NCBI GenBank assembly: GCA_003990765.1
Contig: RBNJ01000040.1
Span: forward strand, 1-48,009
Source: Jimgerdemannia flammicorona
Lineage: Eukaryota
Direction of reading: 5' to 3'
DNA: 48,009 nucleotides
The notes beneath the pieces were generated by a model, which did no database searches, was not told the DNA's origin, and was given only the letters and a program-made list of their open reading frames with translations. This document shows, one piece after another, positions 13,001 to 45,819 of this stretch (positions are counted from its first letter, which is position 1; every line of letters begins with the position of its first letter). Both the position numbers and the translations under genes were made by a program.

Positions 13001-13444
13001 CCGACCCTCAACTAGCCCCTGGGCCAGCCCTATACTTATTGTATCAAAGAAAGGAGGATGGAGACTCTGTATAGATTACAGGAAACTCAACTCAGTCACC
13101 AAAAAAGATGCCTATCCCCTGCCCAGAATCAATGACCTTTTGGACCAGTTACAAGATGCCAGATACTTCAGCAGTATGGACCTTTTTGCAGGATTCCATG
13201 AGATCCCCATGGACCCCAAAGATATTCAAAAGACAGTCTTCCTTACTTTAGGAAAACTGTTTGAATACCTCCAAATGCCCTTTGGACTTTGCAATGCACC
13301 CCCCACCTTTCAGAGGATGATGAATTCAGTCTATGCCCCTCTGATCTACTACTGTCTGATTGTATATATAGACAATTCTAACATCTATTTAGCAAATTTC
13401 GAAGAACACCTGCACCACCTGGAGGAATTCTTCAAGCTCACTGC
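7046..13444 (+). mobile_element. Ty3/Gypsy LTR retrotransposon family C, 3'-truncated; putative 5' LTR ~7046-7862
   Basis: Gag, protease, dUTPase and RT motifs follow in order. The LTR limits are tentative because there is no second copy: it starts tatgac (decayed TG), has TATAAATA near 7174 and AATAAA near 7698, and ends ttaca at 7862. Confidence 0.8.
8802..13444 (+). pseudogene. gag-protease-dUTPase-RT of Gypsy C (decayed)
   Basis: MATSLPTFAG... gag; zinc knuckle CFYCGQFGHYATEC (~9665-9706); protease LIDTGA (~10358); dUTPase DVGYDL, PRSGL, GTIDPGYIGEI, IAQ, RQAKGFGSS (~11950-12345); RT PWASP, LCIDYRKLN, MPFGLCNAP, YIDN. Many in-frame stops, often TGA at Arg positions. Confidence 0.88.
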
Positions 13445-14712
13445 TAAGTTCCAGGGTTGGCACTGATGGTTGTACAGGTTCAGGATACTGGTATAATTCA
13501 GTGTCATATCAAAATGCCAGTGCTGGAACAATTCTGCATTACCTCAAAATGCTGGTGCTGGAACAATTCTGCATCACCTCAAAATGCTGGTGCTGGAACA
13601 ATTCTGTATCACCTAGAGACTTTAGAGCAGAATGTTTAAGACCATGGGGGCTTCATCCTTATCAGAGATCAGGATGTCTTTGAAGGAGATGAGGTCTGTG
13701 AATTTATTGTTATTGTATAGGTTGTGCATTTCACATATTTTGTGTGCTTTGTATATATTGTGTGGGATGACATCATTGCTGATGATGTCATCACGTTCAG
13801 CTGAGGCAGTGGTGGGAACAAGAAGATCTGAAGCTCTCCAATCTATGAGATTCTCTTCTACAAAATAGGGAACAAATGTGGGGTCTTGGGGAGGTCTAAC
13901 CTGGATGCTTGGGCCTTGGAATACTGAGATCAATCCTTGTAGGAATTGGTCTGGATTGTCCTGAAGAATAGAATATCAGAAGTCTTCTACTTTATCACTA
14001 TTGAGAGTAATAGTAGACTGGGCTTCTGTAGCCACTCTGGCTTCTAGTGTATTGATATGGCAGGATGATAGGTCTCTGAAGTCTGAGACTCTAACATACT
14101 CCAAGTTGAGGATTGACCATGGTGTATGCCTGAAAATCTGATGGATCTTCTTAGCTGTCCTTGCCTCACATATATCTATGGGAGTGGCATCTTGTAGCTC
14201 TTGAGGGCTGGCCTGTGGGAACTCTTGGTAGAGGAGGTTTCCTATTTCATACTTCTGCCACATTTGGAGGCATTCAGTAGCAATAGTGATCCTTGTTTCC
14301 ATTTCATAGTGGTAGAGGATATAGTGATAAGGGTTGGCAGTACCCAGGTTGACACTAGGAGTCCTTCTTGTATGGGTCCCCATGGCTCTTCTGATATCTT
14401 GGAACATCCTTTCTTCAACTGAGGTGCCTTGGTGGTTCCTTGATCTTGAGGTTTAGTAAGTGGTAGGCATTTCATTTATGGTAAGTCTTTGAGCTATTTT
14501 GGAATTAGTGGGTCTTGTTGATTGCTGCTACTGTAGTTCTTTGATTCTTCTTTTATATTCCTCAAGATACTCATACTGTGGTCACAATGACTCACAGTTG
14601 GTCATCATTGCTTATCTCACATAATATATGATCTTCTTATGCTCTGATCTGGTGGCTTGCAAGGAAAGGCTGTCTCCTGTACTGATGTCATTATTCTGGG
14701 GTCACTATTACA
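13445..14712 (-). mobile_element. partial LTR of Gypsy family B, including its LTR ORF
   Basis: Colinear with ~44155-45367 and with ~36251-38165 minus its MITE; ends ttaca at 14712; ORF MFQDIRRAMG... at 14407 runs in one frame to 13622. Confidence 0.9.
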
Positions 14713-14888
14713 ATATATATCAAAATCTTAGTAATCTTATAATGGTATATTTGTGATAGATTTAATCCAATAAAATTCTCTAGAATGAACATACTTGCTG
14801 AAATTTCTATCTATTAATATGAGAAGTAATCCTTTGAATATTTTTATCATTATTTAAAACTCCTTTTCTCTAAGTATTATTAGTGATA

Positions 14889-15458: not shown

Positions 15459-16911
15459 CTATCTGCTACTGGAAATCTCTGGAAATAGATTTGCCATTAC
15501 TTTTGTTTGAGCTAAATCAAACAGCATCAGACTATTGTACAATCTGATACTAGTATCTACCTTATACTCATTAATAAGATACATTATAAGATATATGTTA
15601 TTAGATTGTACTGTAGTTTCTAGTGGTATTTTACCCAACTTATTCCTTGCATTCACATCTGCACCAGCCTCTATAAGGATTCAGGCAATTACAATCCTAT
15701 CTGCCTCAGTATATCTCATATAATTTTCATATATGATATATAGAGGGGTAAATTCACTTGATAGTGTCCTTGCATTAACATCAGCACCATGATTGATAAG
15801 TATTTCAACAAAGACAAATAAACCTCAAGTAGCTGCCTCATGCAATAGAGTTATATCTCTCTACTATTCATTGACATCAATACCAAACTCAGTCACTATA
15901 ATCTTGAATATATTGAGGCTGCCTCTACATATATTCCCAAATAAGTCCTTCTTGTACAGCCCCAACCTCATTGTAGAGTATTTGCATTATCTCAGGGTGT
16001 CTTTTATATATTGCCAGCTATAATGCTATTTTATTTAATGAATTCTAGATTTCAGTATTAGTATGGAATTAAGCATAGAGTATTCACACAACCTCAGAGT
16101 AATTGCTCTCTACTGCAACATGCAGTAGTGTTATTTTATCATATCTCTGCAGATTAATATTGGCCTTGAGATCATGATAAAGATCCCAACTAGTTAGAGA
16201 TCTCCTAGTAAAGTAGCTTCATGGAGCAGTGTCTAATGATTATTGTAAATCACAACCCCATCAGCTAAGTATTTTCTGATGACTACCCTGGGGTTGAATT
16301 TCTATCTGACCAGCCTTTCAATAAGATATGAGAGCCTTTCTATCATAGAATTAACTGCTAGTTTATCAACAGTAGATAGCTTTATGACTGGTTCATACAC
16401 TTCTTGCAGCTTATTGGCCAGATTGATACCAACATCCAAAGAAGTGGCAGCACTATGTGGGTGAGTAGTATTGGCTAGTATCTTTTGGTGTTTCATAGTA
16501 GTAGATACCTTCATATATTCACTAGAAGAGGTGGTGGTATCTTGTAGATAGATAGTAATAGCAGATGTTCTTTTACATTTGAGTATAGGTACTTTTATAT
16601 ATTCACTAGAAGAGGTGGTAGTATCTTATAGATAGGCAGTAATAGCAGATGCTCTTTTGTATTTGGATGCAGGTACTTTCATACATTCACTAGAAGAGGT
16701 AGTGGTATTTTGTGGATAGACAGTAATGATAGATGCTCATTTATATTTGGGTGCTAAGATGGCAACATCATGTCAACAGATAGTAATGGGAAATATTTCT
16801 TTATGTTTGGGAGCTCCTTATATTTACTTGTACTTGATATCATGAAATCAGATAGCTGATATGGTGAAATTATCAGTTGATCCTGAATATATCAGATTTT
16901 GTTGTTATTGT
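15459..16911 (-). pseudogene. 3' part of a long ankyrin-repeat pseudogene
   Basis: Decayed ankyrin repeats (GADVNARNKLGKIPLETTV, LLHEATLLGDL, KITLLHVAVE). The 16.1-16.3 kb module matches the modules at 24.2-25.8 kb. Confidence 0.7.
16500..16810. repeat. 84-bp (28-codon) tandem repeat within the ankyrin gene
   Basis: ttcactagaagagg recurs at ~16518, 16602 and 16686. Confidence 0.8.
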
Positions 16912-26755: not shown

Positions 26756-27222
26756 TGTAATGTAGCAGACACTTAACCTTGGAAGTACATCAGATTTCTG
26801 TATCTTAAAAACTTGATCTTCTTTGACTCTGCAGAGTCCTCAGGATGCAGGGGTGGGTGAGTTCGAAGTGTATCTGCCTGCAGGCTTACTAGTTCCTTTG
26901 CTTTTCTCTTTGCTTTGAACTACTTCAATCTGAGGTTTATTCACTCTAAGATACTGGGTTATTTATACAAGTTTACTAGCTATAAGATGGCTAAGTAATG
27001 AGTCATTTTCTACAAGTATTAGATCTTTTAACATCTGCTAGGATTTTGCTGATTACTGATATTCTAACATCTTCTGAATCTTTGCAAATTTTAAAGTTTC
27101 TGCACTTTGCAGAATATGACTGCTATTTTTAAGGCTATACTATATTGGGAATTGAGTTCAGGTACTATGATCAAATGTCTAATTCTCCTGATTCATGTTA
27201 CTAATTCAGATCAACCATCACA
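26756..27222 (-). repeat. 3' LTR of Gypsy A
   Basis: Direct repeat of 32996-33462; abuts the polypurine tract (acttcctcctgaat on +). Confidence 0.95.
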
Positions 27223-27725
27223 ACTTCCTCCTGAATAGATGATTTATCCCTGAAATATCCTATTCACTTGAACTCCCAGGCTTCTACAATTTGTATCTCC
27301 TTGTACTGTGTGATTTATGCTATTACATTCTTCCAGTATTGTCTCCTGAGATATCTGAATTCTCCTAGAGTTACATCTCGAAAATGAGCTAGAGCTGGCT
27401 CATTATCTTTGAATAACTTGTGCACTCTCTTGGTAATTGTGATCTGAATGTAGGAGAGCTGATATTCTCTGATCCAGTCTTCTTTTCCCATTTTTGGCTT
27501 TGAATTCAGTAGCTATCCTATCTTGAAGTATTCCTGGAACTCAGCTCGGTTCTGGTAGGTCTTAAAGTGTGAAATTTGTGATAAGTATGTTTGCACTATA
27601 CTCTGGATACTGTTGAAGGATTCCTCCATTGTGGGTGGCTCAGTAGAACACCACTGTCTTTCTATGACTCATTGGACAGCACTTGTGATCTTGAGAGCAG
27701 CTGCATTACTTTGTTGACTGGTCAT
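27201..27725 (-). pseudogene. ORF3 of Gypsy A (post-integrase accessory protein, ~175 codons)
   Basis: MTSQQ...EFQEYFKIG*LLN...ITKRVHKLFKD...VTLGEFRYL...IQEEVVMVDLN in one frame, with only transition-type internal stops; homologous to the family B LTR ORF. Confidence 0.7.
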
Positions 27726-28907
27726 GATACTTCTTGAGTCAGTTTCAGTAAATGGTAGTGGAGATGATTGTGCCTGAGAGTTTTCATAGCCAAAAGGTGG
27801 TCCCTTTTATATCTTACACAAGGTAAGGTCCTTCCTACTTAGGCTCCAGTTTTCATGACTATAAAGCTTCTACTATGTTCTGATATACTAGGACTTTGTC
27901 TCCTATCTTGATAATCTCCAGGGGCTTGTAATTTTTTTCTGCATTATTCCACTATAATGTCTGCACCTTGTTTATATAATCCTCAGCCTTCTTCCTGATT
28001 TGGTATAGTTTCCGTATCTCTATGTCCATACATTTCCATACAGCATCTCTATTAGACAATAGAGTTCCTTGAGAACTTTCTTCTCCGAATAGCATTTCTC
28101 GAGGGGTAAAGTGGGTGCTTTGCGATTGGATATCTCGGAGAGCAGATAATACTATTGGCAGATAGTGATCCCAGTTTTCATAGTTATCACAGATCTTGGC
28201 AATAACATTCTTGAGAGTCTTGTTGGTCCTTTCCACCTGTCCATTTCCTTGAGGGTGATAGAGTGTAGTCTGAATATGCTGGATCTTGTACTTCTTGTAG
28301 AGAACCTCAAAGAACTGGTTTATGAATTCTATTCCTCTGTCTGTAGTTACTTGCATTGGGGTCTTGAATCAGCAGATGATTTCTTTGTAGAAGAAATAGC
28401 AATTAACTGTGCATTGGCTTTTTTGAGGGATCCTGCCTCTATCCATTTTGTGAAGAGGTCTATTATGATGATGATGTATTAGTTGCCAGTCAGGGTCAAG
28501 GGTGGAGGGCCAATTACATCTATTGTGATGTGGGCAAATAGTACTGGTTCTATATGTGATGATTCTGGGGCTTGATTTCGTTGGTCTTGTTTCTGTTTCT
28601 GGTATTTGTTATATATCTTGACAAATCATCTGATATCTTCCTCCATTCCTGGCCACCACATTGTTCTTCTTGCTTTATCATATGTATTGGTTCCTCCTAA
28701 ATGGCCAAGTTCATATACTGATTTTATTGCTTGCTCCTTCTTGTATTCTAGTATAACCAGTAGTTTTCCTTTCTTCAGTATTTCTCCATCAGTCTTGAAT
28801 TGTTTCCATGTTCTGTTGATAATCATTTATATTCATTCTTCTAGATGTTGGGGCATCTTTCACTGTCCTAGGTATGTGATGATTCCATAGTAGAGTTCCT
28901 TATTCAT
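27706..28907 (-). pseudogene. integrase of Gypsy A, in its own reading frame
   Basis: MNKELYYG..., GHLGG, WWPGM, TTDRGIEF, YHPQGNGQVER, KLEPK*EGPY; no chromodomain. Confidence 0.88.
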
Positions 28908-31900
28908 GATTAATTTGCTGGTTGGAGGTCCTTTGAGGTGTCTGTGAGAGGGTATCTGCATTGGCATTGGTTCTTCCTGGGTGGTGTACAATGGTTACAT
29001 CATATGCTTGTAACTTCATGATCCATCTGGCATAGATTCCTTTGGGTTGCTCAGTGGTCAGTAGCCAAGTGAGGGCTGAGTGGTCTATCTGGATGGTGAA
29101 GTGTCTTTTGGCAAGATAGTAGTGGAACTTTTCTACAGCCCAGATAACTGTGAGACACTCCAACTTGTATGATTCATATTCTTTTTCAGCTCCTCAGGTT
29201 CCATGGCTGAGATATGCAATGACATACTCTACTTTGTCTTTCTTTTGAGTTAGGACTGCTCCTAGTCCTTGTGCACTTGCATCTATCTGAAGGATGAATT
29301 CTTGGGTCCAGTCTGGTCTTCTAAGGATGGGTGCTTGGGTCAGTCTGACCTTGAGCTCATCAAATACTTGTTGCTGGCTGTCTGTCCATTGGAATTTGAT
29401 GTCCTTTTTGTTCAGTTCATAGATTGGGCTTGCAATGTTGGAAAATCCCCTAATAAATCTGCAATAGTAGGAGGCAAGTTCCATGAAGGCTTGGGCTTCA
29501 GTAATAGTAGTGGGTCTTGGATATGCTGCTACTGCTTGTATCTTGAGGGGGTCTATATGTGTTCCATCTCAGTTGATGATATGAACCAGGTAGGAGATCT
29601 CAATTTCCACAAACTTGCATTTCTTGGGCTTGATGTAAAGACCATATTCTCTCAGCTTCTCTATTATCTGCTGAATATGCTGCAGATGTTCTTCAGCTGT
29701 CTTGCTGTAGATGATTATATCATCTATGTAAACCATCATCCATCTTCCTATATCATAGTGGAAGATTTTGTTCATCATTTGCTAGAAGCTTACTGGTGCA
29801 TTGCACATTCCGAATAGCATTTGCAGATAGACATAGGTTCTGTCTGGAGTGATGAAAGCTGACTTTTCACTTACTGCTTCTGTGAGACCAATTTGATAGA
29901 ATCCTGAATATAAGTCCAAAGTGCTGTAATACTGTGCTTCATCTCCTAGGGTTATGAGAATATCACTGATAAGGGGCAGTGATTGGCAATCCTTCTTAGT
30001 GACCAGGTTGAGTTTCCTATAATTGGTGCAGAGCCTTGGGGCAAATTCTCCCGGCTTGCTTCCTTTCTTCAGGACTAGTATAACTGGTGAAGCCCAAGGG
30101 CTGCTGGCTTCTTTGATGATACTAGCTTCTTCCATTTGCTTGATTTCTTCTCTAAGCCATTCATGGTAGGCTGGCAGGATGGGTCTTGCCTTCTGATAAA
30201 TTGGTTTGGTGTCTTCTGTGTCTACATCATGATAGCAGTGTGGGGTCTTTCCTTTGATATCTCTGAAATCTGTAGCAAGGACATCCTCAAATTTATAGAG
30301 TATCTTCTTGAGTTTCTTCTTGAATGAAAACTTATTTCTAATGGTATAGCTATGCTTGTTTGTAGTTTCCTCCTTCTTGTATTCCAGTTTGGTAATCTTG
30401 GTACTGGTGAATACTCCTCTTCTAGTAGATCCAAATTCTTTTCTTTCTCTTCCTGTTTCTTTCAGTTTCTTAACTTCTATGATCTTTGGTTGTAGAATCG
30501 GAAAGATCAATATCTGCACCAATCAGTTCTTCTTCTTGATTGGGAATGGGATTGTAGGGTTGTGATTCCTGATGATGAGTAGGATTTCTCCAGTATAGTC
30601 TGAGTTAATGACTCCTCCTTCGATGGTAATTTTGCTTTTAGCCAGACTGCTTCTTGTCTTGAGAATTCTGACATGGTCCTTTGGTATGGTCATCTCCAGG
30701 CCAGTTGCAAGTAGGGTAGTTGTCTGGGGCTCCAGTACAGTTTCTTCTACAGTGGTGATGTCCATTCTGGCTGCATTTTCTGACTTGTATTCTGGTAGAA
30801 CTGCATCTGGGTAGATCTTCCAAATTTTGACCTTGATTTCTTCTTTATCATCACTGTCCTCCAGGAGGACTGGTGGTTCATCATCTTCTTCCTCCTGTTC
30901 TTTGGCCTGTTTCTCAAGAGCCTTCTGTCTTCTTTGTTGGTAAATCTCTTTGATTTTGCCAGTACACTTGTAGCAATCATTGATATGCTCCATATAGTAC
31001 ATTTGGATCCCATGGGGGCAGACTCCTTGTAGTGCATATCCTTCTGTGATCTTCTTACACCATTCTTCTTCACTCATCCATCCAACTTTCTTCTTCTTTT
31101 TCTGAGTGGTCACCATGTAAGCTTCCTCTTGTTCACTCCCTTCTTCCTCCATATTGGGCAGGACTCCCTTGTTGATGTTGATGGGAATTTGTATCTTCTG
31201 TCCTTGGTAGATGATCTGCATCTTCTGTGCATTGAGGTCAATTATTGCTCTGGCTTTGTGAAGTCATTGATTGCTGATGAGGATGTCATAGTTGATTGTA
31301 TTGGTTACAATCACATCTACTGGGATGGTTGATCCTCTAAGCTTGATGGAAACATCTTGGATTTTTCCCAGTAGAGTAGCTCTTGTACCATCTGCTGTGA
31401 TGAATACCAATTTGGTTACTTCTTCAACTTTCCAGCCTAGGCAGTCTGCTGTTTTCTTGCTGAGGAGACATCCTTCTGCTCCAGTATCAATGATGGCTTC
31501 AAATATTCTGTCCTCAATTTGACAGGTTGTATAGGCAGAGGTCTTGCAGTTGTCTTTGCTTTCTTTTCCTAAGTCTTCTTGAACATTGTTGGCCTTGGTT
31601 ATCTTCCAACCTTGCTTCTTGGTTGTTTCAGCAAGTTCAAACCTCATTTGCTGTCTGAATGTTGGGATTTCTGTGAGCTGACTAAAGGTTACATTGACCT
31701 TTTGTTGGCTGAGGTCCTTGAAAATATCATACTTAAAGGTCTTGGTCTTGTGAAGCTTCTTTTCTTTTTCTCCCTCACTGGCTGGAGTGGTTCCTCAGAT
31801 GATATCTTGAACTACTTGTTCCAGCTCTATATCTTGATTCATTTCTTCAGCTTGACTTTCTGTAGCGGTTTCTATCTGTTTTTCCACCGGGTTCTTCTTA

Positions 31901-32881
31901 GGTCTTCCTGGTGGCCTCTTGTAAGGTTTCTTGCAAACATCCTTTTTAGTAGTCTGTGCAGGATATACCTCCTATTTCTCTTCATCAGAGTCTCCAATTT
32001 CCTTGAATGTGATGATGTTGGCCTGTTTCTTATTTCTAGTAGCATTGCTCAGCTGGGCCTTGTGCTTGGTTCAGCTCATGCATTTATATGAGTAGTGGCC
32101 TTCCTCTCCACAGCTGAAGCAGATACCTTTCTTCTTGTCTGTAGTAGCAGCAAACTTCTGAATTGAGCAGCGATCTCTTCCTCTGATTTCTTTTACTATG
32201 TCTCCTAGGTGGGCAGTCATTTCAGTGAACTGCTTGGTGAGCTCCTCCATAGGGTCACTGTTTCTCTGCTGCTCTGTAGCTCTTGGCTGAGGTGTGTTTC
32301 AATTGATCATTATAGTAGGGATCACACTAGTTGCCTTGGGTGCTTTGATTCTAACTTCAGTAACTCTTTCCATTGTATAGTCTTATGGGTGTCTGGCTAT
32401 CTAATATTGCTGAGCATAGGTGACCTTCTGTGGCAGATTCAAGACTACTGGTGATGAGAAGATGGCCATAGCTATCTCTGGGTGTGAAGGTTGCTTCCGC
32501 TACTTGATCTCAGATAGCATCAGCATAATCTGCAAGGATTATCTGATATCGGATTCTAGTATAGAATGTGTTTGGATCCTCACTCATTCCTTGGCATATT
32601 GTGTTGAGCTGGTCCTTCAGGGCTTGCTTGATCTCATCTGTGTAATAGGTGTTTCGGAGCCAGGTCTTCTTTGCTGTAAGTATAGCATCAGCATCATTTC
32701 CTATATGGGTTGCAGCTGTGAATGCTGCTCTGGCAGGACCTCATAGGCTGAAGAGCATGAGGGCTACTTGCTGTGCTACTGTTAGGGTCCTTACAGCAGC
32801 ATACTGCTCAAAATCATCAATGAAGGTAATGATTGATTCATCTGAGGTATATCTATAGAATACTAGTGGTCTCATATCCAT
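28900..32881 (-). pseudogene. gag-protease-dUTPase-RT-RNase H of Gypsy A
   Basis: CFSCGEEGHYSYKC, IIDTGA, TRSSLA/GVINSDYTGEI/EFGST, PWASP, YIDD, QIDASAQGLGAVL, IDHSAL. The six ORF fragments from 31647 to 28900 share one frame. Confidence 0.92.
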
Positions 32882-32974
32882 CTTGTCTAGGTATCTTGAC
32901 TCAGTTTGTGTGATTGTTTAAGTGGTGGTAGTTGTTCATTGTTCAGCTTGAAAGTGAGGGATTCATCTTGAATC

Positions 32975-32992
32975 ACCAGCTAATGGGTACCA
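32975..32992 (-). promoter_or_regulatory. primer-binding site of Gypsy A
   Basis: TGG-starting 18-mer 3 nt inside the 5' LTR; near-identical to family B 43832-43849. The cognate tRNA was not identified. Confidence 0.7.
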
Positions 32993-32995
32993 AGT

Positions 32996-33462
32996 TGTAA
33001 TGTAGTAGACACTTAACCTTGAAAGTACATCAGATTTCTGTATCTTGAAAACTTGATCTTCTTTGACTCTACAGAGTCCTCAGGATGCAGGGGTGGGTGA
33101 GTTTGAAGTGTATCTGCCTGCAGGCTTATTAGTTCCTTTGCTTTTCTCTTTGCTTTGAACTATTTCAATCTGAGGTTTATTCACTCTAAGATACTGAGTT
33201 ATTTATACAAGTTTGCTAGCTATAAGGTGGCTGAGTAATGAGTCATTTTCTATAAGTATTAGATCTTTTAACATCTGCTAGGATTTCACTGATTGCCAAT
33301 ATTCTAATATCTCCTAAATCTTTGCAAATGTTAAAGTTTCTGTACTTTGCAGAATATGACTGCTATTTGTAAGGCTATACTATATCAGAAATTGGGTTCA
33401 GATACTGCAATCAAATGTCTAATTCCCCTGATTCATATTACTGATTCAGATCAACTGTCACA
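32996..33462 (-). repeat. 5' LTR of Gypsy A
   Basis: Direct repeat of 26756-27222, followed by the PBS on the minus strand. Confidence 0.95.
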
Positions 33463-33680
33463 ACATACAAATCAGGAGGGGTAGCAGCATCCTGCAGATG
33501 GGTAGACTTGGCAAGATTTTGTTTGTATTTATATACAAAATACAATATAGCAGGCATTTCAATCATTGTATTGATCACCAGTTTATCCTTAGTAACAATA
33601 AGTGGCTCTGTATTCTGAACTGGCAGATTGGGTAGATTTGGCAAGAATTTTTTTATATTTATATATAAGATGCAATTGTA
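33463..33680 (-). pseudogene. 5' part of the ankyrin-repeat pseudogene
   Basis: QNTEPLIVTKDKLVINTMIEMP matches the repeat units at 26.35-26.75 kb on the other side of Gypsy A. Confidence 0.6.
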
Positions 33681-34199: not shown

Positions 34200-35947
34200 A
34201 CACTCACCATTCTACAAACAATCTGAATGAGTTAGCTCAACCCAAATAGATCATCTGATTGTGTGCCCAAACTGAGATTGCTCAAGGATATTTGATTTCT
34301 CTATTGAAATTTGTCATTGAGAACTAGGTGGTTCAGAATAGTTAGTTGTATAATGATCAAATATTTTTCCACCAGCTATGTTGAGAGCATTCTATATAAT
34401 ATATATTTACAAAATTATTATTGGTGAATTTTTAATTAGGCCAACTCTGGTTATGCACCCAAGGCTACATGATCATGTGCCCCATGAGTTTGGTATTACC
34501 AAATTAATGAAATATTCTTTCAGATAACCATATGATCACTCATATAGTTGTACAGCAGTTGATAATAACTCAGGCCAGCCTGTGGAGCAATTGTGGCTAA
34601 TTCTTGTTACTGAGATATGCCAATTTGGCTGTAAAAAAAAAATTGAAGTTTATGTGAGTACCTTGAGGTACAGGGTCCATTATGACTAACTGGACTCAGA
34701 TCAAGACCTTTTTTGAGCCCTAATCCTCTTGATAACCATATTTTCTATAGCTTATATATATGTAAATTTACATAACTGAGTTTTTTATATGATATCTTCT
34801 TCTACTACTTTATCTGCCTTACCTACTTCTAATACTTCTATATCCACATCAGCTGCTACTATTGCTAGATGACATGACTATACTCTTACTGTTATCTCTT
34901 TATTCAGCCAAGCTATTGCTCACTCATCTTCATTATCTGAAGCTATTGCTGATCTATCTTTGTTACCTCAAGCTATTGCTAGCTCTTTCTTGTCTTTGTC
35001 TATCCAAGTTGTTACCACTCCATCCTTGTCCACCCAAGTTGCTGCCAGCTTATCATCAGTTTTTCTTATAGACAAGTACAAAATTTCTATTAATGTCCTC
35101 TTTAGTTATCTATGCATGAGTGTTTTTTAAACAATAAATAGAAAATTACCTAAAGGAGCAAAGCTGTCCAGAAATATGAAAAAAGATGAGTTGCAGGAGC
35201 AGTTTTATAAGTTTCTTGAGCTTGGGGATGGTGGTTTAGTAATAAATATTCAAGATCCTGTCACTGTTTGCAAGATCTGGAGTTTTTGAGAATTAATCAT
35301 AGATATGATAAAGTACTTAGATATGTAAACCAAACTGCATCTGAGAAGTCTTTTGAGGATTACACATGTAACAATTGCCACCATAAGGTCTGGAGACCTT
35401 TCAGAAATACCTCTTTATAAGCAGATATACTTGAATCTATCAAAACAACTGAGCCATTATTAATAACAATACAGATCACCTCAAGTATACCCACTCTTGC
35501 TATTATTTCTCAAGTGAAGAATATTGTAGAGACTGTTTATCAATGGGAGGATAGAACAATCAAGCAGCTTACAGATCTATACCACAATATAACTAATTGG
35601 CATATTTTTAAGAATACAGTTTCTAAACATAAAGTAAGAATCAATTTATTTAAAATGGGCAGAAATTGGTAGGAATCATTAGTAAACTACATATTTTAGT
35701 AGAAAAAATGTTGAATTGTGCTAATCTCAAATTCTTTACATTATTCTTAAATTATAGCATCTGTATGAAGAATATATTAGTCATCAAAGTAATATAGATC
35801 AATTTGTTACAGTATATTCAAATGCTAATGCAAATAGATAAAGAATTATATAGAGTGTCAAAAAGATAATAGACAAATTGGAAGAATATAACAGTTATAA
35901 TAAGTAAGTATGATTGAGTGAGGATTAAACAAATATATAATATAAGT
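34200..35947 (+). pseudogene. heavily decayed plus-strand coding remnant, possibly the N-terminal part of the recombinase gene
   Basis: Cys-containing fragments (VCPN*DC, CNNCHH), a 30-bp repeated Ser/Ala-rich linker at ~34900-35050 and intron-like signals; family not recognised. Confidence 0.35.
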
Positions 35948-38165
35948 TATCACGTAGTGATTACCGAGTCCTTCAAATATACCAGATTCTCTTCAAGATA
36001 TATCTCTTAGACTAACTCAAGTTTGTTATAAGCAAGTTCTTATTGGAGTGCCTTCCCAAGGTCTTATAGTCCTCAAACTTCTTATCTTTAACTGTCTTGT
36101 TATCTCTTATATTGCTTACAAGGAAGTATGTGTATTGTACTGAGAAGACTGACTTTATTTCAAAGAAAATAAGAGGGATATTTATACAAAATATAATTCA
36201 ATGGTTGCTAAGATATAAAGCTAAATATAAATTCTAATAACTAAAACTACTAAGTTCCAGGGTTGGCACTAATGGTTATACAGGTTCAGGATGCTGGTAT
36301 AATTCAGTATCACATTAGAATACCAGTGCTGGAATAATTTCATGTCACCTCAGAATACCAGTGCTGGCATTATTCAGTGTTACATAAGAATACCGGTGCT
36401 GGCATTATCCAGTGTTACATGAGAATACTGGTGCTGGCATTATCCAGTATAACAAAGAACTTAGAGTAGAAAGTTCAGGATCATGGGGGCTTCATCATCA
36501 TTATCATCATCACTAAAGGAGATAAGATCCACAAATTCATCATTTTCACATACTTCAATATTGCGTGGGATGACATCATTACTGATGACATCATCACATT
36601 CAGTGGGGAAATCGGGGGCTCTCCAATCTATGAGGTTCTCTTCTACAAAATAAGGGACAAATGTGAGGTCTTAGAGAGATCTAACCCGGATGCTTGGGCC
36701 TTGAAATAATGAGATCAATCCTTGTAGGAATTGGTCTGGGTTGTCTTGGAGGATGGGGTGCTAGAAGTCTTCTACTTCATCACTATTGAGGGTAATAGTG
36801 GACTGGGCTTCTGTAGCCACCCTGGCTTCTAGTGCATTGATATGATGGGATGATAGATCTCTGAAATCTGAGACTCTAATATACTTTAAGTTGGGGATCG
36901 ACTATGGTGCATGCCTGAAGATCTGATGGATCTTCTTAGCTATCCTTATTTTGCATATATCCATGGGAGTGGCATCTTGTAGCTCTTGAGTGCTGGCTTG
37001 TGGGAACTCCCAGCAGAGGAGGTTTCCTATTTCATACTTCTGCCACATTTGGAGGCATTCGGTAGCAATGGTGATCCTTGTTTCCATTTCATGGCAGTAG
37101 AGGATAAAGTGATAGGGATCTACAGTACCCAGGTTGACACTAGGAGTCCTTCTTGAGCAGGTCCCCATGGCTCTTCTGATGTCTTGGAACATTCTTTCTT
37201 CAACCAAGGTGCCTTGGTGGTTCTTTGATCTTGAGGTTTGGTAGGCAGCAGGCATTTTATTTGTGGTAAGTCTTTGGGCTATTTTGGAATCGGTGGGTCT
37301 TATTATTTGCTGCTACTGCGGTTCCTTGATCCTTCTTTTATATTCTTCAGGATGCTTGTACTGTGGTCACAGTGACTCATATAGTGCTCTGAATGAGTCA
37401 ATCCGGATGGGATTCGGATGGATTTGAATCCCATCCAGATCAACTCAGATTGGATTCGAATCCCATCCAGATCAACTCGGATTGGATTCGAATCCCATCT
37501 GGATCAACTCGGATTAGATTCGAATCCCATCGGGATGGATTCGAATCAACCATTGTTTTGATTTCCAAATTGGACAATTAAATGTTTACATCAATAACTC
37601 AATGAATAATCATCCAAATTTGATGATCTTGGTGTCATTTGAACGCCCTTAATAAGGCCTTTCTAATGATATCAAGAACATTAAAATCAGATTACGCGTT
37701 GCCGAGATATTAAGGAAACTGTTCTATTTGACGAAATTTCCAAAATCGGCAAATCGAAGAATTTCCAAAATCGGCGATTCAGACGGGTTCCTTCATAACT
37801 CAGCAACGCATGATCGGATTTCAATGTTCTTGGTATCATTAGATAGGCCTTATTAAGGGGTTTCAAATGACATCAAGATCATCAAATTTGGATGATTATT
37901 CATTGAGTTATTGATGTAAACATTTAATTATCTACATAATTTGGAAATCAAAACAATGGTTGATTCGAATCCATCTGGATGGGATTCAATCCGAATCAAT
38001 CCGAATCCAATCCAGATTAAATTGACTTGTTAGGAGCACTAGACTCATAGTTGATCATCATTGCTCATCTCGTATGCTGTATAATCTTCTTGTGCTCCGA
38101 TCTGGTGGCTTGCAAGGAAAGGCTGTCTCCTGTGCTGATGTCATCATTCTGTGGTCACCATTACA
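35948..38165 (-). repeat. 3' LTR of Gypsy B (interrupted by a hAT MITE)
   Basis: Colinear with 43853-45367 after removing 37382-38049. Confidence 0.93.
37382..38041. mobile_element. non-autonomous hAT MITE (foldback), copy 2
   Basis: Same TIRs and arms as 17471-18007; perfect 8-bp TSD gactcata; the empty site is visible in the other B LTR copies. Confidence 0.95.
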
Positions 38166-38467
38166 TCTTCCTCCTGAATAAGGATCTTCCTGAGCATTCT
38201 TATTCATTGGTCCAGTCCTGAAAAATTTGCTGATCCCATAATCTCTGGCAAGGGGTTGAAAAGTGGTGTTTATGGGCTGGTGTCTTCTCTTTGTATTTTG
38301 GTGTGATGGTGAAGAGTCGCTCCCTTCATATAGAGCAAGGGCCTGATTCTGATCTTGACCAATCGGTTGATAGTTTGAACTCCTCTGACTTCGAAAGTCT
38401 CACAGATGAGTAGTTGCCAGTGCTGTATCCCTTAGAGAATGGTCCAGACAGATAGCCTGCTGGTCAT
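38144..38467 (-). pseudogene. candidate post-integrase ORF of Gypsy B
   Basis: MTSRLSVW...ICETFEVRGVQTINRLVKIRIRPLLYM...LIQEEDVMVTTE*. It crosses the polypurine tract in the same frame as family A ORF3 (IQEEVVMV). Confidence 0.45.
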
Positions 38468-38478
38468 GAGACATGCTG

Positions 38479-39726
38479 TTATAATTCATGGACTAGAATC
38501 TTGTGAGCAGTCATCACATTTTGCTTCTCTTGTATGGGTTCATGGTACTTCTTGAGTCTGTTCCTATGTACCATGGTAGGCAGTATGGTCCCTGAGATTT
38601 TTCTAAGCCAGATAGTAGTTATCTTGATATCTTGCATGTAGAAGGGTTCTTCCCATTTGGGCTCCAGTTTTCGTGACCATGAGGCTTCTACCATATTTCA
38701 ATACAGTAGAACCTTTTCTCCAATTTGGATGGATTCTAGGGCCTTGTGATTCTTTTCTGCATTCTTCCTTATCAGTGCTTGTGATTTGGTGATGTAATCT
38801 TCAGCTTTCTTCCTGATTTGGTATAGTCTCTGGATTTCTGCATCAACCCATCTCCAAGTTAGGTCTAGATTTGTGGCTGAGGTTCCATCAGAATCTTCTT
38901 CTCTGAAGAGCAGCTCTCTTGGGGTAAAGTGTATGCTCTATGATCATATATCTCATAGGATAGAGAGGGCAGTTGGGAGATAGTTATCCCAATTCTCATA
39001 TGTCTCTGAGATCTTCACTAGGATGTTCTTGAGGGTCTTGTTGGTTCTTTCTGTCTGTCCATTTCCTTGAGGGTGGTATGTGGTGGTCTTGATATACTGG
39101 ATGTTGTATTTCTGATACATTATCTTATAGAATCTATTGATAAATTCCATGCCATGGTCTGTTGTGATTTGCTTTGGTATCTTGTAGTGGCAGATGATTT
39201 CTCAGTGCAGGAAGTCAGCTATAGAGAGGGCATTGGCTTCTTGTAATGCTCCTGCCTCTATCCATTTGGTGAAGAGGTCTATAATAACTATAATATAGTA
39301 GTTTCCTGATAGTGTTACTGGTAGTGGTCCAATGATATCCATTGCAATGTGGTGGAAGAGGATAGGCTCAATTCTTGATGACCCAGGTGCCTGGTCTTAC
39401 TGATCTTGTTTCTGTTTTTGGCACTTATCACACCCTTTGAAAAATTGGTGCAGGTCTTCTTCTATCTTGGGCCACTACATAGTTCTTCTTATCTTGTCAT
39501 ATATGTTGGTTCCTCCTAAATGTCCTTGCTCATGTACTTTCTTTATTACTTGATACTTCTTGTGTTCGGGTATTACTAGCTTTTCTCCTTTTCTGAGTGT
39601 AGTGTTGTCTAGTTCAAACTGTTTCTAAGTCCAGTTGATAATAGTGATTGTCCAGGGTTTGAGGTGGTTGGGCATCTTCTGCTGCCCAAGATAGCTGATT
39701 AATCCATAGTATAGCTCCTTATTAAT
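38479..39726 (-). pseudogene. integrase of Gypsy B, in its own reading frame
   Basis: (I)NKELYYG, H..GHLGG, CDKC, MDIIGP, TDHGMEF, YHPQGNGQTER, KLEPKWEEPF, VHRNRLKKY. Confidence 0.9.
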
Positions 39727-42700
39727 GTTGAATAGTCTTGATGGGAGTGTTTCGGGGTGTCCTTGAGAGTACATCAGTATTGGTGTTGGTCTTTCCTGAG
39801 TAGTGCTTGATAGTATAGTCATACTCTTGCAGCCTGTAGATCTATCTGACATATATTCCTTTGGGGTTCAGAGTATGGAATAGCCAGGTAAGAGCAGAAT
39901 AGTCTGTTTGAATAGTGAAGTATTTCCCAGCTAGGTAGTAGTGGAACTTGTCTACTGCCCAAACTACTGCTAAGCATTCGAGCTTGTATGACTCATAGTT
40001 CTGTTTTGCTCTGCTAGTACCTCAGCTTGCATAGGAGATGACATATTCATGTCCATCTTTCTTCTGAGCTAGGACTGCTCCAAGTCCTATAGTACTTGCA
40101 TCTGTTTGCAGGATGAATTCTAGGTTCCAGTCTGGTCTTCTGAGGATAGGTGCTTGAGTCAACCTGGTCTTGAGTTTATTGAAGGTCTCTTGGCGCTCCT
40201 TGGTTCATTCAAATTTGGTTTCCTTCTTCAGTAGCTCATAGATAGGTGCTGCAATGTTAGAGTATCCTTTGATGAATCTTCTGTAGTAGCTGGCCAGTCC
40301 AAGGAAGGCATGGACTTCTGTGGTTGTTCTGGGTCTCAGGTAGGCTGCAACAGCCTCGATCTTCATAGGGTCTATATGGATTCTGGTCTGGTTGATGAGG
40401 TGTCCTAGATAGGCAATTTCTTGAGCTGCAAACTTGCATTTCTTGGGCTTGATGTAGAGGCCATGCTTCTTGAGCTTCTTGAGGGCTAGCTGTATGTGAT
40501 TGACATGTTCCCATGTTGTGTTACTGAAGATGATCACATCATCAACATAGAAAAAGAGCCATTTTCCAATCTTGTTGCTGAAGACTCTGTTCATCATTCA
40601 CTGGAAACTTGCTGGGGCATTGCACATTCCAAATGGTATTCGCAGGTAGATATAGGTGGCATCAGATATGATGAAGGCTGATTTCTCACTGGCATCTTGA
40701 GTGAGACCAATCTGATGGAAGCCTGAGAACAGATCCAAGGTGGTGTAGTATTTGGCTTCGCTTCCAAGGGTGGTAAGGATTTCTTGAATATTTGGCAAGG
40801 GCTGCCTATCCTTCTTGGTGATGGCATTGAGTTTCCTGTAGTCAATGCAGAGTCTTGGCACAAACTCTCCAGGCTTGCTTCCTTTTTTCAGGGCAAGGAC
40901 AATGGGTAAGGCCCAGGGGCTGATAGCTTGCTTGATGATTCCAGCTTCTTCCATTTCCTTGAGTTCTGCTTGCAGCCACTCTCTGTAGGCAGGTGGTATG
41001 GGTCTGGCTTTCTGGTAGATGGGCTTGGTATCATCAGTATCAACTTCATGGTAGTACTTGGGTTCTTGATTGTGGATATCCCTGAAGTCTGTAGCAAGTA
41101 CTTCTTCATTCTGGTGCAGGATCTTGAGAAGTTGTTCCTCTAGGGGAAAGTTTTCTCCAATAGTATATATGTGCTTATTCTGGTCCTTGTCTTTCTTGTG
41201 CTCAAGTTCAGTAGTCTTGGTGGTGGCATAGGCTCCTCTTCCAGTAGATCCAAAGCCTTGTTCTTCTCTCTTGGTCTTGATGAGTTCGATGGCTTCTATG
41301 ATCTTGGGCTTCTTGATTTCGTGGATCAGCATCTGGCCAATCCTGTCATGCTTCATGACTTCAAAGGGGGTGGTGTGGTTGTGATTTATGACTATGAGGA
41401 AGATCTCACCAGTGTAATCAGAGTCAATTACTCCTCCTTCAACTGAGATTTTTCTTTTGGCCAGACTGCTCCTGGTCTTGATAATTCTGGCATGGTTTTC
41501 TGGCAGCTTGACTCCAATTCCAGTATAGTGGTCTGTGGTTCGAGGGTAGCATCTTGAATGCTGGCAAGGTCCATTCCTATAACTCCTTCAGTCTTGTATT
41601 CTGGGATCTTGGCTTCAGGGTGAAACTTCTTAACCTTGAGGGTAATGTCTGATTCTTATTCCTCCTCATCATCACTGTCAGCCTGAAGTTCTGGGGGCTG
41701 GTCATCTTCTTCGGCTTTCCTTTTTGCTTCAGCAGCTTCTTGCTCATATTTCTGTTGGTGGATTTTCCTGACTTCACTGATATAGGACCAGCAGTCATTC
41801 AGGTGTTCAGAGCAGTACATCCTAGTACCATGGGGGCATCTTTCTTAAGGGGCATACCCATCGATGATCTTGTTGTACCACTGCTCATCTGTGAGCTTGG
41901 GTGTCTTGTTCTTGTTCTTGTTCACTGAGTGCATGAAGACTTCTGTGTCCTCTTCATCTTCTTCCTCCATGTCTGGTAGGACTCCTTTATGGACATTGAT
42001 AGAGACTCATACCTTTCTTCCTCTATAGTTGATCTGCATCTTCTGGGCATTGAGATCAATGATGGCCTTGGTCTTGTGAAGCCATTGGTTGCCAATGAGG
42101 ATATCATAGTTGGTGGTGCTTATAACAATCACATCTACTGGGATGGTAGCTCCTCCTATCTTGATGGGGACTTCTCAGATTTTGCCAAGTGGGGTAGCTC
42201 ATGTACTATCTGCTATAACATAGACCATCTTAGTGAACTCTTCAATATCTCATCCTAGGCAGTCAATTACCTTCTTGCTCATAAGGTATCCTCCAGCACC
42301 AGTATTAATGATGGCATCAAAGATACAGTCTTCAATCTGACAGGGGGTATAGGCTGATGTCTTGTGCTGGTCTTCAGATTCTTCACCTGAGTTCTCAGAA
42401 TCTTCCTGTACATTGTGAGCTTCTACAATCTTGTACTCTTGATTCTTGGCAGTCGTTGTAAGTCCTACTCTCAACTGCTGTCTGAAGGTAGGGACTTCAG
42501 CTAGCTGTCCAAAGGTGGCATTGACCTTCTGTTCCTTGAGATCCTTATAGATATCATACTGGTGGATCTTGGTCTTGCACAGCTTCTGTTCCTTCTTGCT
42601 TTCACTTTCTCCTGAGACTGGAGTAGTGCCTTCAATGATTTGGTGGGTAGCTTCATCTAACTCCATGTCTTGATCAATCTCCTCGGGTTGGGTCTTACTT

Positions 42701-43732
42701 TGAATAGTGACAGCTGGGGTCTTCTTTGGTCTTCCAACTGGCTTGCTGTTGCTTTTCTTGTCATAGGGCTTGGACTGGGTTCTGGTACCTTCAGTAGCAG
42801 GGTAGAATTCAAGCTCCTTATAGTATTCTTCATCATCAGTGTCACCAATCTCCTCGATGACTACTACATTGGTTTGTTCTCTAGTTCTGCTAGCATTGCT
42901 TGGTTGGACTTTGGGTCTTGTTTTGGTCATGCAATTCTTTGCATAGTGGCCTTCTTCTCCACATCTGAAGTATGTAATATTGCATTCTTCTGTAGCAGCT
43001 GCAAATCTCTGCACTGGTCTCCTGTTGGTACTTCAGACTTCTCTAACAACATCACCAAGGTGTGCAGTCATCTCAGCGAACTGCTTGGCAAGTTCATCCA
43101 CTGGGTCAGCTTTGGCTATCTTGGGGGTAGGTGGAGTTGGTTGTCTGTTTACAACTGTGGCGGGTATGATACTAGTTGGCTTTGATGGCTCTATCTAGAT
43201 GCCAGTTATTTTCTCCATTGAGTGTTCAGCAGGGTGTCTGGCAGTCCAATATCTCTGTGCAAAGACCACTTTCTGATCAAGAGTCAGTGCAGCTGGGGTA
43301 CACTGGATACTAGGGCAATTTCGGGTGAACTCCTTTGAGGAAGGTTGAATCTGCTATTTGTTCCTTGAGGCAGTCATCATAGCCAGCCAAGATAATCTGG
43401 TAGCAGATTCGGGTATAGAATGAGTTGGGATCTTCACTAAGTCCCTGGCAGATAGTATTGAGTTGATCCTTGAGAGCTTGCTTAATCTCTTTGGTATAAT
43501 ATGTTGTTCTGAGAAAGGCCTTCATATTGGCAAGTTTGGCTGCACCAGCATTAGCAATAGTGGCTGCATTAAACTTGTCTCTGATAGGTCCTCTGAGGCT
43601 GACTGATAGAAGGGCCAATTGAGCATCCACACCAAGGGCTCGTATGGCAGCAAATTGTTCAAAGTCTTCAATAAAGGTCAGGATTGACTCTTCAGTAGTA
43701 TATCCATAGAATATAGGAGGGTGCATTTCCAT
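39722..43732 (-). pseudogene. gag-protease-dUTPase-RT-RNase H of Gypsy B
   Basis: MEMHPPIFYG; (Y)FRCGEEGHYAKNC; IINTGA; TRSSLA, GVIDSDYTGEI, IGQML, QGFGSTG; LCIDYRKLN; YVDD; QTDAS. Confidence 0.92.
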
Positions 43733-43852
43733 CTTATCTTGAATTCTTACAAGGGTGACTCTTGTAGTCAGGGTAGTTATTGTGGGGGTTGTATGTTTTT
43801 CAGCTTGAAAGTGAGGGATTTGTCTTGAATCACCAGCCAATGGGCACCAAGT

Positions 43853-45367
43853 TGTCACATAGTGGTTGCTGAGTCCTTCAAATATGTCAGATTCTCTTCA
43901 AGGTATATCTCTTAGACTAACTCAAGTTTGTTATAAGCAAGTTCTTATTGGAGTACCTTCCCAAGGTCTTATAGTCCTCAAACTTCTTATCTTTAACTGT
44001 CTTGTTATCTCTTAGATTACTTACAAGAAAGTGTGTGTATTGCACTGAGAAGACTGACTTTATTTTAGAGAAAATAAGAGGGGTATTTATACAAAATATA
44101 ATTCAATGGTTGCTAAGATATAAAGCTAAATATAAATTCTAATAACTGAAACTACTAAGTTCCAGGGTTGGTACTAATGGTTATACAGGTTCAGAATGCT
44201 GTTATAATTCAGTATCACATCAGAATATCAGTACTGGAACAATTTCGTGTCATCTCAGAATACCAGTGCTGGTATTATCTAGTGTTACATGAGAATACCA
44301 GTGCTGGCATTATTCAGTGTAACAAAGAGCTTAGAGCAGAAAGTTCAGGATCATGGGGGCTTCATCATCATCATCATCATCACTGAAGAAGATGAGATCT
44401 GCAAATTCGTCATTTTCGTGTGCTTCAATGTCATGCGGGATGACATTATCACCGATGATGTCATCATGTTCGACAGGGATATCAGGGGCTCTCCAATCTA
44501 TGAGGTTCTCTTCTACAAAATAAGGAACAAATGTGGGGTCTTGGGGAGATCTAACCCAGATGCTTGGGCCTTGGAATACTGAGATCAATCCTTGCAGGAA
44601 TTGGTCTGGGTTGTCTTGGAGGATGGGGTGCCAGAAGTCTTCTACTTCATCACTATTGAGGGTGATAGTGGACTGGGCTTCTGTAGCCACCCTGGCTTCT
44701 AATACATTGATATGGCAGGATGATAGATCTCTGAAATCTGAGACTCTAACATACTCTAAGTTGGGGATCAACCATGGTGCATGCCTGAAGATCTGATGGA
44801 TCTTCTTAGCTGTCCTTGTTTCATGTATATCTATGGGAGTGGCATCTTATAGCTCTTGAGTGCTGGCTTGTGGAAACTCCCAGCAGAGGAGATTTCCTAT
44901 TTCATACTCCTGCCATATTTGGAGGCATTCAGTAGCAATAGTGATCCTTGTTTCCATTTTACAGCAGTAGAGAATAAAGTGATAGGGATCTGCAGTACCC
45001 AGGTTGACACTAGGAGTCCTTCTTGAGTGGGTCCCCATGGCTCTTCTGATGTCTTGGAACATCTTTTCTTCAACTGAGGTGCCTTGGTGGTTCCTTGATC
45101 TTGAGGTTTGGCAGGCAGCAGGTATTTCATTTGTGGTAAATCTTTGGGCTATTTTGGGATTGGTGGGTCTTGTTGTTTGCTGCTACTGCAGTTCCTTGAT
45201 CCTTCTTTTATATTCTTCAGAATGCTTGTACTGTGGTCACAGTGACTCATAGTTAGTCATCATTGCTCATCTCATATACCGTATGATCTTCTTGTGCTCT
45301 GATCTAGTAGCTTGCAAGAAAAGGTTTTCTCCTGTGCTGATGTCATCATTCTGTGGTCACTGTTACA
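43853..45367 (-). repeat. 5' LTR of Gypsy B (1515 bp)
   Basis: TG...CA ends; adjacent PBS; contains a 30-bp tandem array (~44190-44320). Confidence 0.93.
44331..45263 (-). pseudogene. LTR-encoded ORF of Gypsy B (~310 codons)
   Basis: One frame MMTNYES...MFQDIRR...YEIGNLL...TAKKIHQIFRH...VRVSDFRDL...DDDDDDEAPMILNFLL; the frame is retained in all three LTR copies, with only scattered transition-type stops. Confidence 0.75.
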
Positions 45368-45819
45368 ATATATATATATATATATATATATGTATCACTT
45401 CTATCAATGTAATTTCAATTTTATCTTATAATAGATGAGGATAAATACTGCAATTAATGTGACTATCAATGCATGAGTTCAACAAGATGAGGTTGAAGAT
45501 TATACAGATATACTTGACATTTCAGCTGAAGAAGAAGCTATTGATGGAAATAATTCAAATTGAAAATTTCCAGCTCTTATTAATGATACTTAAGATGATC
45601 TTGATGATGATGATATAAAGAACCCTCTATAGTAGATTATACCTCTCTTATATAAAAGCAAGAGGTTCATGATATTAGTACAGTTATAGTAAAAAACTAT
45701 AATCAACTATAAAAAAAAAATAAAAAAAAAACTATAATCAATGAGTGATTATTTCTAATATATATTAATATATATACATCAGACTTCTTATTTATTATTA
45801 TTATTACATATTTTAGAAT

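Follow-up and report, generated by a model that had tools for sequence, protein, structure and literature searches.

A conserved protein-coding frame inside the long terminal repeat of a Ty3/Gypsy retrotransposon of Jimgerdemannia flammicorona

We analyzed a stretch of 48,009 nucleotides from Jimgerdemannia flammicorona (assembly GCA_003990765.1, contig RBNJ01000040.1, positions 1 to 48,009 of the forward strand), hereafter called the window. At its right end lies an old, degenerate Ty3/Gypsy retrotransposon with a dUTPase domain, located on the minus strand and named here element B. Each long terminal repeat (LTR) of this element carries a decayed open reading frame (ORF), which we refer to as the LTR ORF. 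The LTR ORF belongs to a small protein family that was under purifying selection while its host elements transposed.

The borders of element B are given by a self-BLAST comparison of the window, in which positions 43849-45251 match 35944-37381 at 89.3% identity and the match resumes at 45244-45367 and 38042-38165, past a 661-bp insertion in the 3' copy. The repeats are direct, 1.5 kb long and end in TG...CA; a stretch resembling a primer-binding site (PBS) follows the 5' copy and a polypurine run, AGGAGGAAGA, adjoins the 3' copy. Together, these features identify the repeats as LTRs (Table 1). Pfam searches with the ORF fragments lying between them recover zf-CCHC (E 1.5e-4), the dUTPase (E 7e-19) and the reverse transcriptase (RT) domain RVT_1 (E 1e-11), while the integrase gives a weak match (rve_3, E 0.007). 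Element B therefore shows what is expected of a Ty3/Gypsy element, namely a CCHC-type gag, an RT and an integrase between LTRs, with stretches resembling a PBS and a polypurine tract (PPT), although all of its frames are degenerate.

An (AT)n microsatellite stands directly before the 5' LTR of element B. Since both flanks of the element are AT-rich, its target-site duplication is ambiguous. An (AT)n or AT-rich microsatellite abuts the 5' ends of both the 5' LTR (45368-45395) and the truncated third LTR of the window (about 14721-14735), and the family may have a target preference for AT repeats.

Table 1 Coordinates of element B, of the LTR ORF copies and of the signals around them (positions in the window).
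Feature	Position	Strand	Description
5' LTR, element B	43853..45367	minus	1,515 bp; TG (at 45367)...CA (ends 43853); 89.3% identical to the 3' LTR by self-BLAST
3' LTR, element B	35948..38165	minus	split by a 661-bp miniature inverted-repeat transposable element (MITE; 37382-38042) with an 8-bp target duplication
Third LTR copy	13440..14720	minus	3'-truncated; diverged subfamily; 81% identical
Internal region, element B	38166..43852	minus	order: gag with CCHC knuckle, dUTPase, RT, integrase; stop-ridden
PBS-like sequence	43832..43849	minus	TGG at its start; 3 nt past the 5' LTR; homologous stretch behind the family A 5' LTR
LTR ORF, 5' LTR copy	44331..45125	minus	264 codons plus stop; start codon ATA instead of ATG; 1 internal stop (44849-44847)
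LTR ORF, 3' LTR copy	37255..36461	minus	3 internal stops
LTR ORF, third copy	14470..13622	minus	282 codons; 2 internal stops; ATG retained
TATAAAAG box	45205..45212	minus	at -87 relative to the ORF start; presumed ORF promoter
35-bp tandem repeats	44190..44324	minus	located after the ORF stop and before the TATA box of the LTR; putatively enhancer-like
TGTATAAATA + AATAAA module	44059..44091	minus	TATA box 44091-44084, 19 nt, AATAAA 44064-44059
Family A stretch between pol and 3' LTR ('ORF3')	27297..27725	minus	faint likeness to the LTR ORF family

The LTR ORF lies entirely inside the terminal repeat, 243 nt from the LTR start, with a second copy within the 3' LTR, and it is read from the same strand as the CCHC knuckle of gag, the dUTPase and the RT. 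The original prediction had placed at 44331..45263 a gene of about 310 codons, positioned like the retroviral genes sag and nef and with its frame preserved in three LTR copies. Our analysis confirms a real gene on the minus strand, wholly inside the LTR as that comparison implies, but a shorter one, of 264 codons counted from 45125. The frame 45263..44331 is not open, as the stops 45239-45237 and 45185-45183 are common to all three copies, and no ATG-to-stop ORF of 310 codons is found at the locus on either strand. The start is placed at 45125-45123 by the M-P-A/P that the relatives conserve; the two other window copies have ATG at this position, whereas the 5' LTR copy has ATA.

The same prediction had attributed the greater length of the LTRs in family B, the family of element B, to a sense-strand ORF on the U3 side, and this attribution stands: the LTR measures 1,515 bp as opposed to 470 bp (about 0.47 kb) in the sister family A, and the LTR ORF on the presumed U3 side explains the extra length.

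The three copies have kept their reading phase. No frameshift separates them despite DNA differences of 11-19%, and the indels that distinguish the third copy from the other two (18, 3, 27 and 6 nt) are multiples of three in 4/4 cases, so that the frequent frameshifts named beforehand as a sign against the gene are not seen. The claim of a preserved frame thus holds for the phase, but not for its integrity, as every copy contains internal stops (Table 1). The single stop of the 5' LTR copy is private to it; contigs of two public runs have a sense codon there (these contigs, of uncertain kind, DNA or RNA, were aligned at a likeness of at least 80% and used only to read the letters of other copies). 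Differences between the copies comprise 147 transitions as opposed to 49 transversions, some of the latter from a misaligned stretch, and CpG is strongly depleted, with observed/expected ratios of 0.03-0.11.

Relatives of the LTR ORF exist outside the window. A protein search with its translation (X at the stop) returned seven proteins, including an intact protein of 247 residues (P0002) with 86% identity over 100% of the query and one of 271 aa (P0003) that begins MPAA. An exhaustive search of 1.84 billion representatives adds relatives at 45, 38 and 34% identity, with five matches at E <= 0.001, and a profile search brings the family to 13 proteins. Whole ORFs are also present on two metagenome contigs, L001 with 323 codons (63% identity) and L002 with 291 codons (42% identity). 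The intact relatives in public data span 34-90% identity. The sequences indicate that this is a real protein family, but a small one. Viral contigs contain no relative of the LTR ORF (0 found). In the protein atlas, the best score (0.86) goes to unnamed clusters; the few of their members that are classified belong to the Basidiomycota, which we regard as a lead only.

On contig L002, a direct repeat, imperfect and about 45 nt long (GTCAGGCGGAAC...CAGAACA...), lies on both sides of the ORF, at 168-208 and 1479-1520, that is 1.3 kb apart. It could represent LTR ends joined in tandem or a repeat internal to the LTR.

We then considered the signals that accompany the ORF within the LTR. Upstream of the start, every window copy has an TATAAAAG box at -87; the box stands at -65 in L001 and at -80 in L002. 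Counting both strands, the window has 96,018 positions and 8 occurrences of this motif, so that about 0.008 would be expected per 100 nt. The leader just before the ATG (...GACTTACCACAAA...) is likewise conserved in lineages that have only 42-63% protein identity. Behind the ORF stop, Tandem Repeats Finder reports 1.9 copies of the 35-bp repeat at 44257-44324, 4.8 at 36292-36459 and 3.0 at 13509-13614, and the alignment shows further degenerate copies. A module consisting of TGTATAAATA and AATAAA follows, and it is also present downstream of the ORF in L001, with 18 nt between its two parts. In family A, the ORF-less LTR of 470 bp contains the TGTATAAATA...AATAAA module as its only TATA-type promoter and lacks TATAAAAG; we therefore take the module to be the canonical LTR promoter and poly(A) signal. 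The position of the ORF in U3, upstream of the start of transcription, would follow from the TATAAATA and AATAAA motifs that the two families have in common.

Based on these observations, we consider it probable that the family B LTR is an ordinary short LTR to which a gene cassette of about 1 kb has been added within the presumed U3. The cassette would consist, in this order, of the TATAAAAG box, the conserved short leader, the ORF of 264 codons and the 35-bp tandem repeats, followed by the TATA box and the poly(A) signal of the LTR itself. Any LTR, whether 5', 3' or solo, would then transcribe the gene, starting at the upstream TATA box and ending at the poly(A) site of the LTR, and yield an mRNA of about 1.1 kb. 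The gene is copied with each insertion, and a truncated or solo LTR keeps it.

A first alternative concerns the route of expression. Retroviral genes that overlap an LTR are expressed either from a subgenomic RNA made by splicing or from the 3' portion of genomic RNA, and the LTR ORF may likewise be expressed from such an RNA, made by the ordinary LTR promoter, in which case the upstream TATAAAAG would not be a promoter. U3 forms the 3' end of each full-length transcript, hence the ORF is part of the genomic RNA by construction. A precedent for the spliced form is CERV, the accessory protein of the C. elegans element Cer1, which according to the available part of its description is made from a spliced mRNA (PMC10309623). 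However, TATAAAAG and the leader are kept at a fixed short distance from the start although the flanking DNA no longer aligns, and a splice acceptor alone is an insufficient explanation for this. We thus regard expression of this kind as unlikely.

Alternatively, the upstream TATAAAAG may itself be the main promoter of the LTR. This would give an R region of about 1.1 kb and make the ORF the first cistron of the element, an 'ORF0' before gag, with TATAAATA and AATAAA serving only as 3'-end signals. Typical fungal poly(A) signals combine a TA-rich efficiency element with an A-rich positioning element downstream of it, and the distance of just 27 nt between TATAAATA and AATAAA fits this layout. 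On the other hand, the LTR of family A, which has TGTATAAATA...AATAAA and no TATAAAAG in its 470 bp, must contain its promoter in this module, and an upstream ORF of 800 nt would impede the translation of gag. A long R region therefore appears slightly less plausible still than expression from a spliced or genomic RNA.

To characterize selection on the gene, we aligned the codons of the three window copies with those of L001 and L002. Between lineages, dN/dS is 0.14-0.27 in the true frame, as opposed to 0.7-1.5 in the two shifted frames, and the differences are distributed unevenly over the three codon positions (for example 87/58/127 in the comparison with L001). We also scored the fraction of synonymous changes against 5000 shuffles in which the mutation spectrum of each pair was kept. 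The two LTRs of element B, compared with each other, behave neutrally (0.295 observed, null 0.293, P = 0.49). By contrast, either of them shows an excess of synonymous changes relative to the third copy (0.41-0.42, null 0.26, P <= 0.0004), and in the comparisons of the window copies with L001 or L002 (0.285-0.350, null 0.108-0.149) the observed value was reached in 0/5000 shuffles. The synonymous bias between lineages, together with the neutrality between paired LTRs, indicates that selection acted on the transposing family and not on these insertions: purifying selection acted on the gene during the transposition of the family, and neutral decay followed these insertions. The codon-level conservation that the original prediction had proposed as a check is thus detected, between lineages.

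These results also bear on the possibility that the ORF is a passenger, i.e. a host gene or gene fragment transduced into the LTR that hitch-hikes with the element and plays no role for it. LTR retrotransposons are known to transduce genes, as stated in the accessible text of a review (PMC7264820), and the protein has no domain of a retroelement type. The same text describes transduced ORFs as occurring in one or few copies (PMC7264820), whereas the LTR ORF is retained with synonymous bias down to 34-42% identity; a passenger would decay neutrally between lineages, which the LTR ORF does not. Furthermore, no longer, fused or host-like form is found (0 matches among proteins of 600-2000 residues, weak evidence). 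We therefore consider a passenger improbable. That the frame is no gene at all, but a chance or compositional opening in a long LTR, would agree with the stops in every window copy and with the lack of a Pfam, PDB or fold match, and yet it is scarcely credible given the whole ORFs in independent records, the strong codon-position bias, the shifted-frame controls and the randomisation test.

The protein encoded by the cassette combines a basic head, a core and an acidic tail. In the 10 sequences beginning at the MP start, the net charge over the first 45 residues ranges from +1 to +8. The models predict a helical core with a beta hairpin (...FVPYFVEENLIDWR...) behind it, both with low confidence. 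The tail, predicted as disordered with a predicted local distance difference test score (pLDDT) below 50, is net negative in 16/16 tail-bearing sequences, with charges from -4 to -26; in the LTR ORF it ends ...SDDDDDDEAPMILNFLL, in agreement with the acidic tail noted originally. Motifs of the type F-x-x-hydrophobic-hydrophobic are found in 12/16 tails and a terminal LN[FI] in 12/16, and the C-terminus is conserved as ...LNFLL, although the sequences behind these charge and motif counts are not all independent. Readings of the tail motifs as clathrin-box, SUMO-interaction or Atg8-interaction motifs, by their usual definitions, were dropped, as the motif positions are inconsistently kept.

It is conceivable, though tentative, that the protein regulates the element in trans, with transcriptional activation of the LTR as its most likely role. 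The idea derives from the basic N-terminus, the helical core, the acidic disordered tail with its F-x-x-hydrophobic-hydrophobic motifs and the C-terminal LNFLL. The 35-bp repeats would then be the response elements of the protein. A helper of RNA export or packaging, or a factor countering host silencing, would fit the same features, and no homology or fold backs any of these functional readings. Still more speculative is the complete picture of a free-standing LTR gene, in which a promoter-ORF-poly(A) cassette encodes a new activator similar to Tas or Tax, or an anti-silencing factor, that acts on the 35-bp repeats, with solo LTRs forming a shared pool of helper genes.

Several points weigh against the cassette and the function proposed for its protein. 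None of the three window copies is intact (0/3, with 1, 3 and 2 internal stops and one copy lacking the start codon), hence they lend no support to a present-day activity of the gene in this genome. The U3/R/U5 borders, both promoters and the mRNA of 1.1 kb are putative assignments based on sequence motifs. Two short contigs (1.3 and 1.5 kb) provide all the genomic context of the relatives, and of these only L001 shows the downstream LTR promoter module, none being seen in L002. With regard to the tail, 4/16 sequences have no F-x-x motif and two of the motif matches in P0010 are atypical; moreover, acidic tails with hydrophobic motifs are common to many unrelated kinds of protein, so that this feature is compositional and non-specific. 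A Pfam search of 14 members matched no DNA-binding family and gave nothing above noise, to which we also assign ATG5_HBR (E 0.088, 2/14 members) and NpmA (E 0.026, 1/14), and a sequence profile search of the PDB gave 0 matches at E <= 10. Finally, the AlphaFold models are poor (two runs, mean pLDDT 48.1 and 50.8), and the fold search returned nothing above the background of helical models (best Z 4.2 in the PDB; best E 0.15, with a template modelling score of 0.17, in the BFVD). The structure search suggested along with the original idea of a transactivator thus yields no fold match with these models (pLDDT 48-51), and composition alone agrees with an activator.

We compared element B with its sister family A, represented in the window by an element at 26755-33464 whose 470-bp LTRs are 92% identical to each other and whose pol shares 67-75% identity with the element B pol. 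In both elements, on the minus strand, the dUTPase precedes the RT in pol (40598-41587 in B; 30523-31263, E 7e-15, in A). A sensitive BLASTN comparison of LTR A with LTR B gave no significant alignment (E >= 2.1) that would mark the borders of the inserted cassette. The two families have similar PPTs and similar initial LTR bases, with AGGAGGAAGT followed by TGTGATGG in A and AGGAGGAAGA followed by TGTAATGG in B, indicating that the LTR border itself has not moved.

The original prediction had further linked the LTR ORF, by a common domain, to a family A stretch located after pol and before the 3' LTR, there named 'ORF3'. This link is not established. The stretch is matched at E 5.9 by tblastn and at an i-E of 0.015 by a six-frame profile search; searched alone it gives 12.7 bits, with an hhalign probability of 32%. 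The aligned motifs of the LTR ORF family and the family A stretch (FQEYFKIG and WQEYEIG, KRVHKLF and KKIHQIF) have similar spacing. As far as the sequences allow, we treat the homology as a lead and not as a result. In family A, an TATAAAAG is also present (27804-27811, minus), located 86 nt upstream of the ATG at 27725 that opens the weakly similar stretch, compared to a spacing of 87 nt in the family B LTR. Both this TATAAAAG and the ATG lie within conserved pol codons (DIKG and YHD), and the match in spacing may be coincidental.

The placement of the LTR ORF has counterparts among retroviruses. The sag gene of mouse mammary tumour virus (MMTV) is a sense ORF of about 300 codons that lies wholly in U3, in an LTR of about 1.3 kb, and is duplicated at every integration. 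The LTR ORF resembles it in being a sense ORF inside the presumed U3 that lengthens the LTR and is duplicated with each insertion. Unlike MMTV sag, it resides in an env-less LTR retrotransposon, encodes no obvious membrane anchor and has a conserved TATA box just upstream, and no sequence similarity is detected: in 14 members of the family, no Pfam match to the Sag, Nef or Tas families is found at E <= 1, and the model with a pLDDT of 51 is too poor to exclude a shared fold. Foamy-virus tas/bel and nef of the human and simian immunodeficiency viruses are 3'-terminal accessory genes whose ORFs start before the LTR and extend into its U3. The transactivator Tas has an acidic activation domain at its C-terminus and is expressed from an internal promoter of its own; it may serve as the closest working analogy to the proposed cassette. 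In contrast to tas/bel and nef, with which it has no detectable homology, the LTR ORF lies wholly within the LTR.

Among LTR retrotransposons, the closest comparisons come from plants. Additional ORFs (aORFs) such as gene23 of Grande and those of Retand and RIRE2, as well as env-like ORFs, are described as conserved, of unknown function and present in most copies of their families, and some of them, such as gene23 of Grande, have a promoter of their own; these statements are drawn from the accessible text of the review (PMC7264820). The same text places aORFs between pol and the 3' LTR, and the wording 'in the LTR' is absent from it (PMC7264820). The LTR ORF differs in being located inside the repeat itself, so that solo LTRs retain it. 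For fungal Gypsy elements, the available part of another report describes a dUTPase between protease (PR) and RT, upstream of RT in PosPlaTy3-5 of Postia placenta, and a figure legend mentions additional ORFs of unknown function in some elements (PMC2864245). Elements A and B resemble PosPlaTy3-5, as far as it is described there, in the position of the dUTPase. CERV of C. elegans Cer1 is presented, in the accessible portion of its report, as a novel accessory protein of a Gypsy-type element that acts in trans on the RNA of the element itself, in RNA export, and that is made from a spliced mRNA of the internal region (PMC10309623). Going by this description only, the LTR ORF product is similar in being an accessory protein of a Gypsy-type element and different in its location in the LTR, as CERV belongs to the internal region. 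The full-text literature covered, which did not extend to subscription-only papers or the supplements of PMC2864245, describes no fungal Gypsy element with an LTR-borne ORF. The placement is already known from retroviruses, whereas the protein family, the type of host element and the apparent promoter of its own are new.

The window contains further features. The insertion in the 3' LTR of element B (37382-38042) and a second sequence at 17471-18007 are 87% identical copies of a non-autonomous element, about 540-660 bp in length, that has long inverted repeats in its interior. Its termini are TAGTGCTC...GAGCACTA, and it is flanked by 8-bp target duplications, TATGAGTC in the 3' LTR of element B and CTGGCAAC at the other copy; the length of the duplication suggests a hAT-type MITE. 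A third retroelement (8000-13466, plus strand; RT E 2e-23 at 12921-13466) stops inside its RT exactly where the truncated family B LTR begins, and probably one of the two was cut by the insertion of the other or by a deletion. A unit of 237 nt occurs four times at 61-70% identity (15950-16186 and 24248-25711), and three of these copies follow one another at intervals of about 600-630 nt within AT-rich sequence, an arrangement suggestive of a satellite-like or tandem repeat. Finally, a GC-rich (52-56%) host gene region on the plus strand (2549-4956) encodes LodA_C and Ferritin-like domains over three adjoining frames, probably exons. Its nearest atlas clusters are bacterial LodA/GoxA-type oxidases and ferritin-like proteins (0.87), making it an unusual gene for a eukaryote.

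LTR-borne genes characterize a small number of complex retroviruses, while LTR retrotransposons are usually described as gag-pol elements with purely regulatory LTRs. The LTR ORF indicates that retroelement accessory functions arose outside retroviruses too, that a gap in LTR length between sister families can mirror their gene content, and that solo LTRs can remain gene carriers and not inert remnants. It also brings to light a protein family without known relatives, which standard transposon annotation misses because LTRs are masked as non-coding. If the free-standing LTR gene proposed here is real, a 'complex' regulatory circuit in the style of retroviruses would have evolved independently in an env-less retrotransposon.

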